A stretch of DNA of 64,000 nt from an uncultured bacterium. GTDB taxonomy: Bacteria > Patescibacteriota > Microgenomatia > UBA1400 > CG1-02-47-37. A program made the translations under genes and the position numbers. The notes below the pieces were generated by a model. That model saw only the letters and a list, made by a program, of their open reading frames with translations. It was not told the DNA's origin and made no database searches. The DNA lies in the NCBI GenBank assembly GCA_963980215.1, contig CAXBYZ010000001.1, positions 7,370 to 71,369 of the forward strand, given 5' to 3'. Of the stretch, positions 9,075-62,938 are shown piece by piece (the stretch's first letter is position 1; each line of letters begins with the position of its first letter).

Positions 9075-9088
9075 GACAATTACCTCTA

Positions 9089-9107
9089 TCACACCTTAGA
9101 GGTGTGA
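9089..9107. repeat. REP-like hairpin, family A (TCACACCT-TAG-AGGTGTGA)
   Basis: 8-bp stem/3-nt loop within the 21-mer ATCACACCTTAGAGGTGTGAT. Identical copies at 9819, 34731 and 47216. Confidence 0.7.
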
Positions 9108-9110
9108 TTT

Positions 9111-9785
9111 TTATTCTTCGAAGTCGAGCATGACTTTTTTGATGTTTTGAAGATTTCTTTGATGGTCGGCGTGATCGTAAACAAAATTTCGATATGAATT
9201 TTTTTGCTTAAAGTAACTTAGAACAATATCTTTTTGACAGTAGTTGGTATTGGTTAGATGTAGGTATTCAGGTAAAGATGAGTATTGATACTTATCTAAC
9301 TGATTAATATTTTCCGCCAAACCGGCACTGTAGGGATTTAAGTGGATGTAGCGAGAGAGATGTAGTAATTGTGACTCTGTCTCAACTAAAACAGATTTAA
9401 ATTTACCTTGAAAAATGGGGCCAATTCTTTTATTTTTTGTATTAAAATATCGAGTATAACTATTGGCAAATTTACTCATAAAATTAGAGATGCCGTTGTC
9501 AACTGATTGCTCTAACAGTAAGTGAAAATGGTTCGGCATAAAACAATAACTAATTATTTTTACTAAATGCTGTTTAGGTTTGTTGGGCTTTTTATCTTTA
9601 TCGAGGAATTGTTGACGAGAAAAATAGGAAAATCTAATTTTTGGAGATTCTTCTTGATAATAAAGCAGGGTATCTAGGCAGCGCCAATAGTGTCTTTCGT
9701 CTAAGAAAATTGGCATTGAAGCAACTCCGCGGTTAAAGATGTGATAAATGCTGTCTGTAATTAGAGGAGTTTTTCTCCCAGGCAT
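9111..9785 (-). mobile_element. REP-associated tyrosine transposase (RAYT; IS200/IS605-like HuH Y1 transposase), copy 1
   Basis: 224 aa with HuH motif (MPNHFHLLL) and catalytic-Tyr region (SRYIHLNPY). No tnpB partner; family-A REP hairpins sit 3 nt from its stop and 33 nt from its start. Confidence 0.8.
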
Positions 9786-9818
9786 ATTTTTATTATAACA
9801 TTCATCTACCTACCCCCA

Positions 9819-9837
9819 TCACACCTTAGAGGTGTGA
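9819..9837. repeat. REP-like hairpin, family A
   Basis: TCACACCTTAGAGGTGTGA. Overlaps the last 6 codons and the stop of secF. Confidence 0.7.
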
Positions 9838-10712
9838 TGTTTGGCCTTGAGATCCTCCCAGAGGACAAGGAGGGGGGCAGCGGTGAAGGTGGATGAGTAG
9901 GTGCCTGAGATAGTACCAATAAGTAGAGCAAAGACGAACCACTTGGTGGTGTCGCCACCCAAAAGATAGAGGGCAAGCAACATGAATATAATTGTTAAGG
10001 AGTTGTTGACTGATCGACCAAGAGTCTCGGTGACAGCTTTGTTGACTAGGTCTGTGTAGGACAGCCTGGGGTAAAGTTTGATGGATTCTCGGATACGATC
10101 GTAGACGACGATGGTGTCGTGAACTGAGAAAGAGAGAATGGTAAGGATGGCGGTGACAAAGAGAGCATCGACTTCAACTCCCCTAGTGACACCTAGGTAA
10201 CTAAAGATACCAACAGTAATAAAAGTGTCGTGAAGCATGGCCAAGATTGCACAGATACCGTACTTTTTATCTTTAAATCTAGTGGCTACGAAAACTAGGA
10301 TAAAACCGGCAGCGATAAAGACACCGATGAGAGTTTTTTTGATTAACTCTTTACCCATGGTTGGACCGACTGTCTCGAAACGAGTTTCTTCTACCTCCCC
10401 TAGCTGGTCTTCTAGGGTTTGTTTTATGGCTTGATTGGTTTCTTGATCGAACTGCTGAGCTTTAATGACAAAAATGTTGTTTTCTTGTTGTATAGCTTGA
10501 TTTAAGATAACGGTATCTTCAACAAGATTGGTAATTTTATCTAGTGACAACTCTTGGTCTTCTTTTGGAGTGATTGATATCTCTAAGATAGTTCCCCCAG
10601 TAAAGTCGACTGCTGGTTTTAGCCCGTGCTTGATTAGAAAAAAACTACTGGGAATCAGAAATAGTAAGGAGAAGAGAAAATAAAGTGTTTTGTACTTCAT
10701 GAAGTTGATCAT
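9819..10712 (-). CDS. secF: protein-export membrane protein SecF
   Basis: FTGGTILEISI and VHDTIVVYDRIRE motifs with 6 TM helices. The C-terminal HHTSKV and the stop are encoded by the REP hairpin. Confidence 0.85.
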   Translation of the reverse strand: MINFMKYKTLYFLFSLLFLIPSSFFLIKHGLKPAVDFTGGTILEISITPKEDQELSLDKITNLVEDTVILNQAIQQENNIFVIKAQQFDQETNQAIKQTLEDQLGEVEETRFETVGPTMGKELIKKTLIGVFIAAGFILVFVATRFKDKKYGICAILAMLHDTFITVGIFSYLGVTRGVEVDALFVTAILTILSFSVHDTIVVYDRIRESIKLYPRLSYTDLVNKAVTETLGRSVNNSLTIIFMLLALYLLGGDTTKWFVFALLIGTISGTYSSTFTAAPLLVLWEDLKAKHHTSKV

Positions 10713-34315: not shown

Positions 34316-34318
34316 TTA

Positions 34319-34337
34319 TCACACTCCAGGAGTGTGA
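34319..34337. repeat. REP-like hairpin, family A variant (TCACACTCCAGGAGTGTGA)
   Basis: Same ATCACAC...GTGTGAT arms as the canonical copies, different centre. Confidence 0.65.
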
Positions 34338-34348
34338 TATTATAAACA

Positions 34349-34729: not shown

Positions 34730-34730
34730 A

Positions 34731-34749
34731 TCACACCTTAGAGGTGTGA
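34731..34749. repeat. REP-like hairpin, family A
   Basis: TCACACCTTAGAGGTGTGA. Sits 1 nt after the cupin stop and supplies the stop plus HTSKV to the convergent phosphoribosyltransferase gene. Confidence 0.7.
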
Positions 34750-35279
34750 TTTTGGAAATATTTGACTTGTTCGGGGGAGAAATTAAGGGATTTGAGGGAG
34801 TCGAGTTTGCCTAGTTTTTTAAGGTCGTCTATGGTCTCTCTAACATCGTAAGCAAAAACTACCCACTTGTCTGTTTTGATTTGCCAGTAATCTGGCAAGG
34901 GTTTACTCCAAGGTTTGATAATGGGAGTGAAAGTGGTAATTTTTTTGGGTTTTAGGGGCTTTAAATAATTAAAGGCGGCTTTTAGAGTAGTACCTTTATC
35001 TGTAATTTCGTCGACTAGTAAAATTGACTCGCCTTTGATATCAACAGCTAATTTTTCAACAATTTTGGGCTCGCCGGAATTGCCAACACTGGCGTAGGAA
35101 ACGAGAGTGAAATTGGATATAGGTAGCTTTAGAAAATCTGAGAGAATGCGAGAGATGACTAAACCGCCACGAGAGATACAAACAATGCGATCGAACTTTA
35201 TTTTTTTGTCGATAACCGTTTTTGAAAATTGAAAGCAGTGGTCTTGGATTTGATCCCAAGAAATGTATTGAAATTTCAT
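34731..35279 (-). CDS. phosphoribosyltransferase (type I PRTase fold)
   Basis: PRPP-binding motif ILLVDEITDKGTTL. The C-terminal NHTSKV and the stop are REP-encoded. Confidence 0.7.
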   Translation of the reverse strand: MKFQYISWDQIQDHCFQFSKTVIDKKIKFDRIVCISRGGLVISRILSDFLKLPISNFTLVSYASVGNSGEPKIVEKLAVDIKGESILLVDEITDKGTTLKAAFNYLKPLKPKKITTFTPIIKPWSKPLPDYWQIKTDKWVVFAYDVRETIDDLKKLGKLDSLKSLNFSPEQVKYFQNHTSKV

Positions 35280-35291
35280 AGGTTTACTCTA

Positions 35292-35310
35292 TCACGCTCC
35301 AGGAGTGTGA
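35292..35310. repeat. REP-like hairpin, family A variant (TCACGCTCCAGGAGTGTGA)
   Basis: One mismatch in the stem relative to the 34319 copy. Confidence 0.6.
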
Positions 35311-35327
35311 TTGGGTGGTGTATTGGC

Positions 35328-39902: not shown

Positions 39903-39912
39903 AAAATACAAA

Positions 39913-39931
39913 TCACACTCCCGGAGTGTGA
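39913..39931. repeat. REP-like hairpin, family A variant (TCACACTCCCGGAGTGTGA)
   Basis: Contains the CACTCCCGGAGTG core found in the rplM/rplQ insertions. Confidence 0.65.
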
Positions 39932-39936
39932 TTTGG

Positions 39937-42273: not shown

Positions 42274-42298
42274 ACCTTCAAGGACTGTCCTTGAAGGT
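42274..42298. repeat. REP-like element, family B, perfect 12-bp-arm palindrome (ACCTTCAAGGAC-T-GTCCTTGAAGGT)
   Basis: Perfect inverted repeat by inspection. Confidence 0.6.
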
Positions 42299-42351: not shown

Positions 42352-42375
42352 ATACAGGGACTGTCCTTGAAGGTG
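42352..42375. repeat. REP-like element, family B (TACAGGGACTGTCCTTGAAGGTGG)
   Basis: CAGGGAC-T-GTCCTTG with one mismatch. Confidence 0.55.
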
Positions 42376-42392: not shown

Positions 42393-42791
42393 TTAACGTT
42401 TGGGGGATTGGCGCTTACGCCTGGCGGAGCCACCCATGCCGGCTTTGCGTCGTTCTCTTTTTCGTGGGTCTCTAGTAACTAGACCTTTTTTCTTTAGAAT
42501 TGGTTTGAATTTCTCTTCATTGACTTTGATTAAGGTTCGTGCAATTCCGTGAATAGTGGCATCTAGTTGACTGGATTTGCCTGAACCTAAAACTTTGACG
42601 GTAACGTAGTATTTTTCTAGAACGTTGCAGATTTTGAATGGCTCTAGGAATAAACCTTGGTTGACTGAACCAGGAAAGTACTTACTAACTGGCAGATCAT
42701 TGACTTCGTGGTCACCTTTTCCAGTGAATAGTCTAACTCGAGCGATGGCTCTTTTTCTTCTTCCGGTTGCGTAAACGTATTTTTTTGACAT
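42393..42791 (-). CDS. rpsI: 30S ribosomal protein S9
   Basis: YATGRRKRAIARVRL...GGSARRKRQSPKR. Confidence 0.93.
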   Translation of the reverse strand: MSKKYVYATGRRKRAIARVRLFTGKGDHEVNDLPVSKYFPGSVNQGLFLEPFKICNVLEKYYVTVKVLGSGKSSQLDATIHGIARTLIKVNEEKFKPILKKKGLVTRDPRKRERRKAGMGGSARRKRQSPKR

Positions 42792-42793
42792 AT

Positions 42794-43279
42794 TTATTTA
42801 TCCTTTTTTAATTTCTTAACAGACACTCCTGGAGTGGGAACTTCTTTCACTCCGGGAGTGAGAGATTTCTTTAATTTATCAGCATAAATGTGGGTTTCTG
42901 TTTTAAATATTTTTAATCTCTTTAACCTTGGACTTCTTAGCTTGTTTTTTGGCAACATGCTGGAAACTGCTCTAGTAATAATTTTTCTTGAATCTTTTTC
43001 TAACTGACGGTCAAAGGTGATTTGTTTTAAGCCATTTGGAAAGTTGGTGTGGCGGTAGTAAATTTTATTTTGTTCTTTTCTACCAGTTACTTTGACGTCG
43101 TTGCTGTTTATGACTACTACATAGTCTCCACAATCTAGGTGGGAAGTGAAGTAGGGTTTGGTCTTGCCGATTAATTTTTGGGCAATTTGAGTAGCGACTC
43201 GACCCAAAACTTGGTCTTTGACATCTACTAGATGCCAATCTCTTTTTATATCTGATTGTTTGGTTGCGTATGTGTCCAT
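42794..43279 (-). CDS. rplM: 50S ribosomal protein L13 with REP-encoded C-terminal extension
   Basis: L13 core; after ...IYADKLKK comes SLTPGVKEVPTPGV (encoded by the 42824-42860 element) then SVKKLKKDK. Confidence 0.9.
   Translation of the reverse strand: MDTYATKQSDIKRDWHLVDVKDQVLGRVATQIAQKLIGKTKPYFTSHLDCGDYVVVINSNDVKVTGRKEQNKIYYRHTNFPNGLKQITFDRQLEKDSRKIITRAVSSMLPKNKLRSPRLKRLKIFKTETHIYADKLKKSLTPGVKEVPTPGVSVKKLKKDK
42824..42860. repeat. BIME-like inverted pair of family-A hairpins (CACTCCTGGAGTG-GGAACTTCTTT-CACTCCGGGAGTG), in frame inside the rplM 3' end
   Basis: 36/37 identical to 43297-43333. The two hairpins are reverse complements of each other. Translated on the minus strand as LTPGVKEVPTPGV. 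Confidence 0.7.
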
Positions 43280-43281
43280 AA

Positions 43282-43701
43282 TTATTTCTCCACTTTCACT
43301 CCCGGAGTGGGAACTTCTTTCACTCCGGGAGTGAGTGAAGATTCTATTTTATCGACGAATTCGATTTTGGCCATCATGGTGTTGTCTCCCCTTCTTTGAC
43401 CTAGTCTAACTATTCTAGTAAAACCAGAGTTTCTTTTTTTAGCTCTAGGAGCGATAACGTCAAAAAGATGATTGGCAGCTTTCTTGTGTGAGAGAAAAGC
43501 CATAACTTGGCGACGACAAGACAGAGAACCCTGCCTAGCTTTAGTCATTAATTTGTCAATTAATGGCTTTATTGCTTTGGCTTTGGCCTCGGTAGTCTTG
43601 ATCTGCTCTTTGAAGATCAAGTTAGTGAGCAAGCTTTTAAATAAAGCTTTTCTCTGTTTGATGTTTCTACCAAGTTTCTTGGATTTGACTCTGTGTCTCA
43701 C
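43282..43701 (-). CDS. rplQ: 50S ribosomal protein L17 with REP-encoded C-terminal extension
   Basis: L17 core (...FTRIVRLGQRRGDN); tail SLTPGVKEVPTPGVKVEK. Confidence 0.9.
   Translation of the reverse strand: MRHRVKSKKLGRNIKQRKALFKSLLTNLIFKEQIKTTEAKAKAIKPLIDKLMTKARQGSLSCRRQVMAFLSHKKAANHLFDVIAPRAKKRNSGFTRIVRLGQRRGDNTMMAKIEFVDKIESSLTPGVKEVPTPGVKVEK
43297..43333. repeat. BIME-like inverted pair of family-A hairpins, in frame inside the rplQ 3' end
   Basis: CACTCCCGGAGTGGGAACTTCTTTCACTCCGGGAGTG. Confidence 0.7.
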
Positions 43702-43703
43702 AA

Positions 43704-44621
43704 TTACTCCTTGACGATAACGTCTTTTTCTTTGAGTTTATCGATAATAATATCTATGGATTTGCCACCGAGATTTTTAACTTTAGTAATATCTGATCGA
43801 GTAGCCTTAGATAACTCCTTGACTGTAGAGTAACCACCATTGCGTAGAGCGTTGGCGATACGAGTGGGAAGATCTAACTCTTCGACTGATAGTTTTAAGG
43901 ATTCGTTTTCATCGACTGCTTCTGTCTCTTCTTCTACTTGGACTTCAAATGTTGGGTCGACAATTTGAGTGAAGGAAGAGATTAAGATAGAGGCGGCTTG
44001 CTCTAAAGCTTTTGATGGCTTGATGGTACCGTCGGTGTAGATTTCCATGACTAGTTTGTCTAGGTCAATCTTTCTACCAACGCGGGCAACCTCGACATTG
44101 TAGTTGACTCTAACAACTGGAGAGAATGATGCGTCTAGAACCATCTGGCCAAGTTTCTGGGCTTGACGATTTCTGGCTGGCAAGTAACCGTGGCCAGTTT
44201 CGACTTCCATTTTTACATCTAGTTTTGAGTTTTTGTCTGAAAGAGTGGCTAAAACTAAATCCTTGTTGGCAATCTTGACGTTGGCTGGAGTTTTGATGTC
44301 TCCGGCTTTGACTTCTCCTGGACCAACTGCGTTTAGACTTAACTCTAGAGGTTTTTCACCGGTGTAGCTTAGTCTAACTTGCTTTAGGTTTAAGAGTAGT
44401 TCAACAATATCTTCTTTGACTCCTGAAAGAGAAGTGAATTGGTGGGTAACTCCGTCTATAGATGCGTTGGTGATAGCGGCTCCAGTTAGACTTGAAAGAA
44501 GAACTCTTCTTAAAGCGTTACCGATAGTTTGACCATAACCCTTTTCTAGTGGAGTTAGTTCGAATTTACCGAAGTCTTCTGTCTCGGCAATGGCAGTTGT
44601 TTTAAAGTTTGGTTTGATCAT
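43704..44621 (-). CDS. rpoA: DNA-directed RNA polymerase subunit alpha
   Basis: N-terminal dimerisation domain plus alpha-CTD; full-length similarity. Confidence 0.92.
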   Translation of the reverse strand: MIKPNFKTTAIAETEDFGKFELTPLEKGYGQTIGNALRRVLLSSLTGAAITNASIDGVTHQFTSLSGVKEDIVELLLNLKQVRLSYTGEKPLELSLNAVGPGEVKAGDIKTPANVKIANKDLVLATLSDKNSKLDVKMEVETGHGYLPARNRQAQKLGQMVLDASFSPVVRVNYNVEVARVGRKIDLDKLVMEIYTDGTIKPSKALEQAASILISSFTQIVDPTFEVQVEEETEAVDENESLKLSVEELDLPTRIANALRNGGYSTVKELSKATRSDITKVKNLGGKSIDIIIDKLKEKDVIVKE

Positions 44622-47204: not shown

Positions 47205-47215
47205 AGTTACCTCTA

Positions 47216-47234
47216 TCACACCTTAGAGGTGTGA
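47216..47234. repeat. REP-like hairpin, family A
   Basis: TCACACCTTAGAGGTGTGA. Supplies the stop and HTSKV to cmk. Confidence 0.7.
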
Positions 47235-47938
47235 TTGATTAATTTGAGGTGGAGGAGTTTTTTGATGATTGCTTCTACAACTTGGTTGATTGTTAGTTTT
47301 GTGGTTTTTAGTAACCAAGCTCCTGGAACAATTTTAAGTGGATCTGCTTCTCTACCAGAATCTTGTTGGTCTCTTTTTTTTGTTTGTTTTAGAGTGGCTG
47401 GAAATGATTGTTTGGTTCCTTTTTTTGATAACTCAATGTGTCTACGTTTGGCTCTTGATTCAACTGAAGCTGTCATGAATATTTTAATGTCTGCCTTGGG
47501 AAGAACAACTGAAGTGATGTCCCTGCCCTCCATAACAACGCTTTGTTTTTTTGCCATTGTTTTTTGAAGATTGACCAAGTGTTTTCTTACCCTTGGAAGA
47601 GTAGCTACCGAAGAAGCTCCCCAACTGATTTTCTCTGATCGAAGTTCTTTGGTGACATCTTTGTTGTCTAACATAACAGTGCAGAAGCGACTGTTGTTTT
47701 TGGGTGGATAGAGCGAGATTTTTGATTTTTTTAGTAAAGGAATTAATTCTTTTTCATTGGTAAATTCAATTGAATTTCTTTGAGCTATTAGAGCGACTGT
47801 CCGATACATTGAACCGGTGTCGATGTAGGTAATGCTTAGTTGTTTAGATAGTAAGCGAGCGATGGTGCTTTTTCCCGCTCCAGCTGGACCGTCGATGGCA
47901 ATTTGAATATTCTTGGTAGGTTTATACTTTGGCTTCAT
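47216..47938 (-). CDS. cmk: cytidylate kinase
   Basis: IAIDGPAGAGKST P-loop and CMP-binding region. The C-terminal HTSKV and stop are REP-encoded. Confidence 0.8.
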   Translation of the reverse strand: MKPKYKPTKNIQIAIDGPAGAGKSTIARLLSKQLSITYIDTGSMYRTVALIAQRNSIEFTNEKELIPLLKKSKISLYPPKNNSRFCTVMLDNKDVTKELRSEKISWGASSVATLPRVRKHLVNLQKTMAKKQSVVMEGRDITSVVLPKADIKIFMTASVESRAKRRHIELSKKGTKQSFPATLKQTKKRDQQDSGREADPLKIVPGAWLLKTTKLTINQVVEAIIKKLLHLKLINHTSKV

Positions 47939-52874: not shown

Positions 52875-52903
52875 AGTTAATTATAAGGTTAAAGTTCGTA
52901 ACC

Positions 52904-53209
52904 TTATATTATTTTTAAGCATTTTTTACAGATTCTAACTTTCTTTTTGCCAACACCCTGGTAACCAACTCTGGTGATTTTTTTGCATTTGGGACATATT
53001 AAAGCTACTTTGGAGACGTACATTGGCTTGGTGATATCTACAATACCGCCTGGCTGAGACTCTCCTTGTGACTTTATGTGTTTTTTGTACATGTTGATGC
53101 CGTTAACTAAAACCATGTTTTTTCGTGGAAAAACTTTTTCGATTTTTCCAGTTTTACCATTGTCTTTACCTAGAGTAACTTTGACGGTGTCGTTGATTTT
53201 TAATTTCAT
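52904..53209 (-). CDS. rplX: 50S ribosomal protein L24 with C-terminal zinc-ribbon (CPKC...CKKC)
   Basis: KOW motif N-half; C4 ribbon extension. Confidence 0.9.
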
Positions 53210-54416: not shown

Positions 54417-54437
54417 AATTAAGTTCGTAACCTTAGG

Positions 54438-58641: not shown

Positions 58642-58679
58642 AAGGTTCCGAACTCGAACTTCTCAAAGTTCGGAACCTT
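58642..58679 (-). terminator. 13-bp-arm inverted repeat (AAGGTTCCGAACT...AGTTCGGAACCTT) between tuf and rpsJ: terminator/attenuator or processing hairpin
   Basis: Perfect arms by inspection, 11 nt upstream of the rpsJ ATG. Member of the GTTCGNAACCT hairpin family. Confidence 0.4.
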
Positions 58680-62200: not shown

Positions 62201-62224
62201 GAGAAAGAGTGTGTGGATTGTATA

Positions 62225-62248
62225 CCTACAGGGATCATCCTTGAAGGT
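62225..62248. repeat. REP-like element, family B (CCTACAGGGATCATCCTTGAAGGT)
   Basis: CTAC + hairpin CAGGGAT-C-ATCCTTG (one G.T) + AAGGT. Sits 15 nt upstream of the RAYT-2 start. Confidence 0.65.
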
Positions 62249-62412
62249 ATATAATGATTATAGATGCCTCCCAAGAATGCTGTAAAAAAATATAAACCAA
62301 GGTCTATTTATCATGTTTATAATAGAGGTGCTGGAAAACAAAATATTTTTAAAGATGAAGAGGATTACAAAACATTATTAGGTTATTTTAAATTTTATTT
62401 AACTCCCATAGA

Positions 62413-62436
62413 CCTACAGGGATCATCCTTGAAGGT
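62413..62436. repeat. REP-like element, family B, in frame inside the RAYT-2 CDS
   Basis: CCTACAGGGATCATCCTTGAAGGT translated as (D)LQGSSLKV, in frame +2 relative to the repeat. Confidence 0.65.
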
Positions 62437-62716
62437 GGCTCCATCTAGGGTATTAAAGAATCATGCTCTAAAAATTGAGTTGATTGCCTACTGCTTAATG
62501 TCAAATCACTTCCATTTAATTCTCTATCAGGAGGAGATTGATTCAATAAATAGTTTTTTGAGGTCAGTTGCAACTAAGTATGCAATGTATTTTAACCGTA
62601 AATACAAGAGAACTGGTCATTTATTTGAAGGTATATATAAGGCTGTTTTAATGAAAACTGAAGAACAGTTATTACACTTATCTAAATATATTCATAGGAA
62701 TCCTCTAGAGATTTTA

Positions 62717-62740
62717 CCTACAGGGATGATCCTTGAAGGT
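62717..62740. repeat. REP-like element, family B, in frame inside the RAYT-2 CDS
   Basis: CCTACAGGGATGATCCTTGAAGGT translated as PTGMILEG, in frame 0. This differs from the frame of the 62413 copy. Confidence 0.65.
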
Positions 62741-62914
62741 TATAAATATTCGAGTTACGGGAATTATTTAAAACAATTTACGCAAACCTGGGTGAAATCT
62801 GAAAAGGTTATGAGTGTGTTTAACAGAGTTGATCATGAATATTCATCATATAAAGAATTTGTTGAAAAAAATGAAGAAATTATAAAATTTAAAGAAGTTT
62901 TATTGGATTATTAG

Positions 62915-62938
62915 CCTACAAGGATGATCCTTGAAGGT
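62915..62938. repeat. REP-like element, family B
   Basis: CCTACAAGGATGATCCTTGAAGGT. Sits exactly between the RAYT-2 stop (62912-62914) and the rpsG stop (62939-62941). Confidence 0.65.

Follow-up and report, generated by a model that had tools for sequence, protein, structure and literature searches.

Palindromic repeats within bacterial coding sequence have been described in several settings. REP (repetitive extragenic palindromic) sequences have been reported mainly downstream of open reading frames (ORFs), with a presumed role as RNA elements, and intragenic in-frame REP dimers encoding 20–30 aa, some of them at ORF ends, have already been described (Di Nocera et al. 2013, PMC3733652). In Pseudomonas fluorescens SBW25, 14 of the 1,067 REP 16-mers overlap genes (Bertels & Rainey 2011, PMC3116915). 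Rickettsia palindromic elements (RPEs), as recounted from Ogata et al. (2000) in PMC10969869 and PMC3733652, are palindromic repeats lying in frame within housekeeping genes, while the miniature inverted-repeat transposable elements known as MITEs are small, non-autonomous and hairpin-forming and are at times fused in frame to host ORFs (PMC10969869). Here we examine a 37-nt palindromic doublet, termed the A element, that is present near the 3′ ends of both rplQ and rplM in a 64-kb stretch of contig CAXBYZ010000001.1 (the window) from an uncultured bacterium of the candidate phyla radiation (CPR). No report of REP/RAYT repeats (RAYT, REP-associated tyrosine transposase) in CPR/Patescibacteria was found in the literature searched.

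Intragenic REPs and RPEs are known already, and what is seen here is the same kind of event in a new lineage. The A element is in our view probably a RAYT-associated palindromic doublet resembling a REPIN (a REP doublet that folds into a hairpin), which would persist in coding DNA wherever the frame is kept and the tail or loop that receives it is tolerant.

The doublet in the rplQ and rplM tails

The genes rplQ and rplM, encoding ribosomal proteins L17 and L13, lie between rpoA and rpsI, all four on the minus strand with gaps of 2 nt between neighbours, including that from the rplQ stop to the rplM start. Each of the two tails contains a 42-nt unit (Table 1) that includes a 37-nt double palindrome, made up of CACTCCNGGAGTG, 11 nt and CACTCCNGGAGTG in inverted orientation. 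The two 37-mers, 473 bp apart, are 36/37 identical and differ only in the central base of one arm. In coding-strand sense the units read TC(A/T) CTC ACT CCC GGA GTG AAA GAA GTT CCC ACT CC(G/A) GGA GTG, with 40 of 42 positions identical and both differences synonymous. Both are read through in the same frame of their genes as SLTPGVKEVPTPGV, followed by SVKKLKKDK* in L13 and KVEK* in L17. The 37-mer is free of stops in five of the six frames and occurs twice in the window (0.00 expected), while the 13-nt arm is found at seven sites (0.05 expected). In the rplQ copy the arms are perfectly complementary, giving a 14-bp inverted repeat with an 11-nt loop and a predicted mRNA fold of −35.8 kcal/mol (z −6.9). 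The rplM copy, with one A-C mismatch on the sense strand, has a predicted fold of −20 kcal/mol (z −3.3).

This anatomy agrees with an earlier note on the window, which had described two nearly identical 37-bp elements, each an inverted hairpin pair around an 11-nt spacer in the manner of a bacterial interspersed mosaic element (BIME). It had also placed them in one frame within two ribosomal protein ORFs, which the ORFs and their Pfam matches confirmed. Its further statements, that L13 and L17 end in identical 14-aa tails followed by Lys-rich codons and that insertion of a 42-bp unit preserved both genes, were likewise correct, as both ORFs are intact.

The Pfam domains span residues 13–130 of L13 and 20–116 of L17, and homology to solved chains stops near residue 134 in L13 and at residues 116–122 in L17. 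As the segments encoded by the element lie beyond both limits, these alignments place them in C-terminal extensions outside the fold. We take these extensions to be solvent-exposed and disordered, from general knowledge of bacterial 50S structures.

In the fold predicted for the region around the rplQ element (43285–43341, minus strand) the stem gains seven pairs, UCUUCAC/GUGGAGA, and the extended stem pairs the GGAG located 8 nt upstream of the rplM start codon. Because the stem covers this GGAG, the rplQ element might enforce translational coupling to rplM. An Rfam search of the elements, in which a ribosomal protein leader or riboswitch was considered, returned nothing relevant at E ≤ 1. 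An intrinsic terminator inside rplQ or rplM was also considered and was rejected; a consensus scan flags the A arms on the antisense strand only, because Lys codons read as T-runs there, and no T-run follows on the sense strand.

Empty sites, turnover and dispersal

The nearest L17 and L13 proteins were those of Candidatus Beckwithbacteria, a lineage of the Patescibacteria (CPR). The C-terminal tails of 120 L17 homologues were variable and Lys-rich, with translated palindromes in the nearest few only. A distinct strain, P0001 (European Nucleotide Archive, 98% aa identity), has the L17 tail SLTPGVKGVPTPGV, in which KGV replaces KEV. In locus L009, from a GTDB species representative with 79% L13 identity (loci used for comparison are given L numbers), L17 ends in ...EFVDKGKK* and L13 in ...YQDKLKKKDK*. 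Both tails are just as short in L008 and in more distant Microgenomates, the L13 identity of L009 and L008 being about 75–79%. Aligned in this way, the tails of L009 and L008 are empty sites for both genes. Among the relatives compared, inserts were confined to the closest Beckwithbacteria clade, and in none of them was the peptide encoded by diverged, non-palindromic DNA. The earlier note had looked to L13/L17 alignments for a lineage-specific segment, had held it to be an insertion instead of ancient native sequence and had taken the organism for a member of the CPR, and the relatives bear it out on all three.

Within the closest clade the tails are mosaics of three hairpin families, A, B and C. 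Both tails in the window carry A. In L001/L007 the L17 tail is made of C (GSEL...SSEP, from GGTTCCGAACT / AGTTCGGAACC) and the L13 tail of A followed by B (AAGGTGACACCTT ... AAGGTGTCACCTT); in L003 the L17 tail is B and the L13 tail is half of A joined to a short B; and in L005 degenerate halves of A and C make up the L17 tail and a degenerate B the L13 tail. The B copies of L001 rplM and L003 rplQ are identical at 73 of 74 positions, compared with 80.1% for the flanking operon (binomial P about 1e-6), and the A copies of rplM in the window and in L001 at 35 of 37, compared with about 78% for the flanks. This mosaic structure, together with element identity above that of the flanks, marks A, B and C as DNA-level repeat families that, from the sequences compared, move or are homogenised between sites and are able to decay, as in L005. 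Since sister species hold remnants of A at the same positions in both genes, the rplM and rplQ insertions probably predate the split of these species and have been kept alike since, rather than being two fresh hits. Alternatively, a hot spot may have received insertions repeatedly.

The same comparisons dispose of an assembly artefact, in which the repeat would have been collapsed or duplicated between rplQ and rplM. Short repeats that are nearly alike and lie close to each other are what such an error would favour, and L100, in which both copies recur at the same 473-bp distance, matches the window at 99.95% identity; it represents the same population, may share the same data and is not independent support. 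The artefact is nevertheless ruled out, with hardly any probability left to it, by the variant L17 element in P0001 and by the A copies at the same position of rplM in sister species from other samples. In addition, both ORFs are intact and end in native-looking Lys-rich codons, and sequencing reads exceed the 37 nt of the repeat in length.

Metagenome contigs were scanned for two perfect A arms 5–35 nt apart, and at least 120 loci were found. Copies were classed by the longest open frame spanning them. Among the matches listed there were 62 non-redundant low-GC (CPR-like) copies, of which 32 lay inside ORFs of 120 aa or more, 4 were in C-terminal tails, 11 were no more than 25 aa from the first start codon and 15 had no long ORF. 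Doublets in long ORFs (coding) thereby amount to 36 of the 62, and both window doublets are coding. Hosts confirmed with Pfam included ribonucleotide reductase (RNR), RadA (two copies in one gene), the L3 and L15 tails, TsaD, LepA, leucyl-tRNA synthetase (LeuRS), MgsA/RarA, a P-type ATPase and ComEC. In alignments with solved homologues the element falls opposite a gap, which lies within a linker in LepA and within a loop in TsaD. The flanks of dispersed copies showed no conservation outside the 37-mer.

Among the matches listed, core length was 1 mod 3 in 34 of 36 coding copies compared with 7 of 15 non-coding copies (Fisher p = 3e-4). This bias is, on length alone, the signature expected of selection for an intact reading frame, and such selection makes it most likely that the elements are translated instead of being removed. 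Frames were used in both orientations, with TPGV in 25 of the matches listed, HS[RGW]S in 21 and L.E in 1. Selection at the peptide level was ruled out, because frames and orientations vary among hosts and no particular peptide is selected. These dispersal data also contradict the view that the TPGV repeats are a peptide motif native to one tail which reached the neighbouring gene through local duplication or gene conversion, with no mobile element, the peptide itself being what counts, for example in binding or modification at the 50S surface. That view accounts for the 473-bp distance between two copies that share orientation, frame and 14-aa product, and for a weak flank similarity (81% over 70 nt). 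It is very improbable given that the 37-mer is found elsewhere in unrelated genes and spacers, in other frames or orientations (HSRS..HSGS or TPGVE..), that single arms are intergenic in the window, that arms flank RAYT-like genes and that relatives have unrelated palindrome-encoded peptides instead.

The occurrence of one doublet in frame within many unrelated conserved genes upholds the likeness to RPEs that the earlier note had drawn. As with RPEs, palindromes are found in frame in unrelated conserved genes of a small-genome bacterium, adding a peptide and leaving the gene intact. The A element is shorter, at 37–42 nt (12–14 aa) compared with about 150 bp for RPE-1 (PMC10969869), and its host lineage is CPR, not Rickettsia, so that the likeness is one of mode of existence only. 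A further difference is that a RAYT-like gene carries the same arms here, while no such association was found in the RPE literature covered.

Several variants were seen among the dispersed copies. In one form of the A doublet an 18-nt palindrome, CCTGCCTGCGCAGGCAGG, is nested in the loop and the product reads ...TPGVKPACAGREVPTPGV; its occurrence in three different genes (Table 1) shows that whole units get copied. Copies at the same site of the same host gene were found in related contigs (L089, L097 and L095, all RarA; L127/L178 and L168; L129 and L157) and differ in the length or sequence of the loop, for example 37 nt and 43 nt in RarA. Same-site copies with differing loops are what is expected if intragenic copies outlast speciation and evolve by in-frame loop indels, which is how we read them. 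Pairs of the 13-nt arm were also present on high-GC contigs (GC 0.6–0.7; L087, L088, L096, L098, L142 and many others), where the arms are usually lengthened to GGAAATCACTCCNGGAGTGATTTCC. A tandem array of arms at bases 11655–11814 of L108 encodes CEYTPGV repeats within a 1023-codon open frame.

RAYT-like transposase genes and other hairpin families

Genes for Y1 (HUH) transposases resembling RAYTs were found with the same arms. In L186/L188 and L207 a Y1 gene is preceded by an A doublet and followed by an A single, and every Y1 homologue in the fetched loci was bordered on both sides by its own hairpin family. A protein database search with the L186/L188 protein gave at least 7,249 homologues at E ≤ 1e-20, and the named ones among those listed were from Daviesbacteria, Microgenomates or Patescibacteria. 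Three syntenic orthologues on Daviesbacteria-type contigs (gene order HisKA, response regulator, RAYT-like, H+-PPase) had the same flank layout (Table 1). Their arms co-vary by compensatory substitutions, CACTCC/GGAGTG in L207, CAATCC/GGATTG in L208/L209 and CAAACC/GGTTTG in L210, and the spacer of the upstream doublet ends in TTGA in the L207, L208 and L210 orthologues. REP_Tyr_transpos was the best, and nearly the sole, NCBIfam match for all four proteins tested, and the RAYT-like protein passed the Pfam Y1_Tnp threshold. Arms placed in this way around Y1 genes have, from their arrangement, the REPtron architecture of REP/RAYT systems (PMC3733652, PMC3116915), and the REP-like character proposed in the earlier note is sustained by this layout.

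Two RAYT-like genes are present in the window. The first is flanked by hairpins of a further family, S, at 9088–9108 and 9817–9839, with the palindrome (C)ATCACACCTCTAAGGTGTGAT(G). The outer stem of this family, ATCACAC/GTGTGAT, is common to the intergenic A singles, in which the palindrome is lengthened to 21–27 nt. By its layout the gene with its S hairpins is a complete REPtron, and the gene is a candidate trans-acting mobiliser. The second has imperfect palindromes of a family T on either side, ACCTACAGGGATCATCCTTGAAGGT and GCCTACAAGGATGATCCTTGAAGGT, in the same orientation and both with CTAC (the reverse complement of GTAG), a context showing that the genome runs REP/RAYT systems.

The A family shares with REP/REPIN-RAYT systems (PMC3116915, PMC3733652) a short palindromic unit, here the 13-nt arm, an inverted doublet and spacer predicted to fold into one hairpin like a REPIN or BIME, and a single Y1/HUH gene flanked by cognate repeats (L186/L188, L207) and kept in conserved synteny. 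Dispersed copies are plentiful across metagenome contigs, and from the seven arm sites in 64 kb they may be so within this one genome too. It is unlike them in that neither the GTAG nor the CGTC tag of the two superfamilies (PMC3733652) is present in or beside the A arms, in that each A arm is itself a perfect 6+N+6 palindrome, in that over half of the sampled A doublets are coding in place of an extragenic predominance, and in that the transposases here score under the curated RAYT threshold.

Other hairpins in the window also touch gene ends. The S-family hairpin ATCACACCTTAGAGGTGTGAT, at 47215–47235 and 34730–34750, overlaps the 3′ ends of two unrelated genes, for a cytidylate kinase (47216..47938) and a phosphoribosyltransferase (34731..35279). 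Because of this overlap the two proteins share the identical end ...NHTSKV*, with the TGA stop within the hairpin, and at the level of sequence this is the same phenomenon as in the rplQ and rplM tails with a different repeat family. T-family hairpins lie directly downstream of rpsI, at 42274–42298 and 42355–42374. On the minus strand a T-run comes after the first of these, which fits the terminator consensus and so is the probable end of the ribosomal operon. Between tuf and rpsJ there is a C-family doublet, AAGGTTCCGAACT..AGTTCGGAACCTT, at 58642–58679, in a spacer that has an A doublet instead in L128, and the junctions rplX/rplE and rpsC/rplP have related hairpins (52882–52908, 54422–54432). 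Family C is also intergenic in L001, between rpsM and rpsK.

Table 1. Positions of host genes, A-type elements and RAYT-like genes in the window and in comparison loci
Feature	Locus	Position	Strand	Remarks
rplQ (ribosomal protein L17), host gene	window	43282..43701	-	139 aa; ORF, Pfam PF01196, homologues
rplM (ribosomal protein L13), host gene	window	42794..43279	-	161 aa; ORF, Pfam PF00572, related loci
42-nt in-frame unit, rplQ tail	window	43297..43338	-	L17 residues 122-135; 37-nt A-type doublet 43297-43333
42-nt in-frame unit, rplM tail	window	42824..42865	-	L13 residues 139-152; 37-nt A-type doublet 42824-42860
rpoA	window	43704..44621	-	neighbour of rplQ
rpsI	window	42393..42791	-	neighbour of rplM
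Intergenic single A-type palindrome	window	34317..34339		TATCACACTCCAGGAGTGTGATA; fold -12.8 kcal/mol, z -4.7
Intergenic single A-type palindrome	window	35291..35311		ATCACGCTCCAGGAGTGTGAT; between two minus-strand genes
Intergenic single A-type palindrome	window	39909..39935		CAAATCACACTCCCGGAGTGTGATTTG; fold -16.7 kcal/mol, z -5.8
RAYT-like Y1 (HUH) transposase gene	window	9114..9809	-	phmmer; NF047646 REP_Tyr_transpos 53 bits, below cut-off 80
RAYT-like Y1 transposase gene	window	62264..62914	+	T-family imperfect palindromes 62224-62248 and 62914-62938
Upstream doublet/downstream single	L207	2441-2478/3157-3169		
Upstream doublet/downstream single	L208	5085-5122/5807-5819		
Upstream doublet/downstream single	L210	9942-9979/10657-10669		
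Nested-loop variant	L128	5437-5491		L3 tail
Nested-loop variant	L137	664-718		L15 tail
Nested-loop variant	L191	1992-2046		glycosyltransferase-like ORF

Mobile repeat or RNA hairpin, and what follows

Several observations weigh against a mobile, RAYT-associated repeat. The same two tails bear three different hairpin families among sister species, and the conservation of orthologous copies exceeds that of the flanks; both facts could just as well come from selection favouring a hairpin at these operon junctions. Neither a target-site duplication nor an exact element boundary could be defined from 33 flank pairs or from alignments of filled and empty sites. No RAYT gene flanked by A was present in the 64-kb window, where the two RAYT-like genes carry flanks of the S and T families, and the RAYT-like proteins score 34–53 bits on the curated RAYT model NF047646, which has a cut-off of 80. 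At the three Daviesbacteria loci the arms were found beside the RAYT gene only, with no dispersed copies within 15–20 kb, and a RAYT therefore does not imply proliferation. The census of coding and non-coding copies used an ORF-length rule instead of gene calls and required perfect arms, and translation of the tails is read from open reading frames alone.

The first two of these points lead to the explanation that the hairpins are selected RNA structures punctuating the ribosomal operon, each a 3′-end stem for mRNA protection, processing or translational coupling. The coding tail would then merely be where the structure must sit in the absence of spacers, which is compatible with a mobile origin. 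It would fit the presence of A, B and C at the same two gene ends and the conservation of orthologous copies above their flanks, as well as the C hairpin (window) or A doublet (L128) between tuf and rpsJ, the hairpins at rplX/rplE and rpsC/rplP, the T-family hairpin after rpsI that resembles an operon terminator, and the predicted pairing of the rplQ stem with GGAG ahead of the rplM start. REPs in general are also mostly downstream of ORFs and thought to be RNA elements (PMC3733652). However, neither junction has a hairpin in L009, L008 and most Microgenomates, both L005 copies are decaying, and the identical element is found mid-gene in RNR, LepA, LeuRS, TsaD and RadA, where there is no cistron boundary. 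There was also no Rfam match, and the rplM stem is mismatched, weaker and not paired with the rpsI ribosome-binding site. We consider this explanation unlikely as the origin of the elements; an RNA role may be a secondary co-option.

The missing duplications bear on MITEs as well. The A element is like a MITE in being small, non-autonomous and hairpin-forming and in its occasional in-frame fusion to an ORF. However, MITEs have terminal inverted repeats derived from an insertion sequence (IS) and target-site duplications, whereas the A element has no consistent duplication, no IS parent was found for it, and the enzyme associated with it is a Y1 transposase. Alignments of the filled tails (window, L001, L003 and L005) with the empty ones (L009 and L008) gave only ambiguous Lys-codon repeats, as did the L3 and L15 tails in the L128 and L137 alignments. 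IS200/IS605 relatives of the Y1 transposase insert without target duplications.

Returning to the RAYT-associated doublet, its anatomy, the empty sites, the spread into unrelated genes, the association with RAYT-like genes and the bias in length are what the sequences show; mobilisation by RAYT-like enzymes, translation of the tails and their neutrality are what we infer from these data. The A family would belong to a REP/RAYT-type system of Microgenomates (CPR) bacteria, in which two 13-nt arms inverted around the 11-nt spacer would form one stem of about 14 bp in single-stranded DNA or RNA. Because the same arms flank their genes, RAYT-like HUH Y1 transposases would be the likely trans-acting enzymes, copying or maintaining the repeats via single-stranded hairpin DNA. 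The ribosomal operon has almost no intergenic space, so that insertions at gene ends could persist there only within coding sequence, and copies would do so if the frame is kept, no stop is introduced and the segment is tolerant. In the Lys-rich C-terminal extensions of L17 and L13 the doublet would be read through as a 14-residue Pro/Gly-rich peptide, since these tails are outside the folded domains. The two copies may be kept nearly identical through selection acting on the hairpin, or through gene conversion between them or with further members of the family.

A broader proposal, which we put forward tentatively and on balance lean against, is that Microgenomates/CPR harbour a coding-compatible class of RAYT-associated REPINs that is short, free of stops in five of the six frames, frame-preserving in length, mainly intragenic and translated, and that as a matter of course adds segments to essential proteins, no fewer than four ribosomal proteins (L13, L17, L3 and L15) among them. 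If true, this class would be a main source of lineage-specific insertions and tails in CPR proteins, and intragenic repeats of the RPE kind would gain a candidate transposase. Beyond this, the hairpins at cistron ends might have been recruited to punctuate operons.

For the biology of these bacteria, the finding would mean that selfish repeats of the REP/RAYT type operate in reduced CPR genomes and, with almost no intergenic space available, persist in coding sequence, core ribosomal proteins included. It would partly explain the odd, variable C-terminal tails of CPR ribosomal proteins, and it calls for caution from annotators and phylogeneticists, for whom such segments would come from repeats and should not be treated as homologous characters. 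The very high coding fraction, the four ribosomal proteins affected across relatives and the clear transposase association add to the interest of what would be a natural system tying intragenic palindromic repeats to a specific transposase family.

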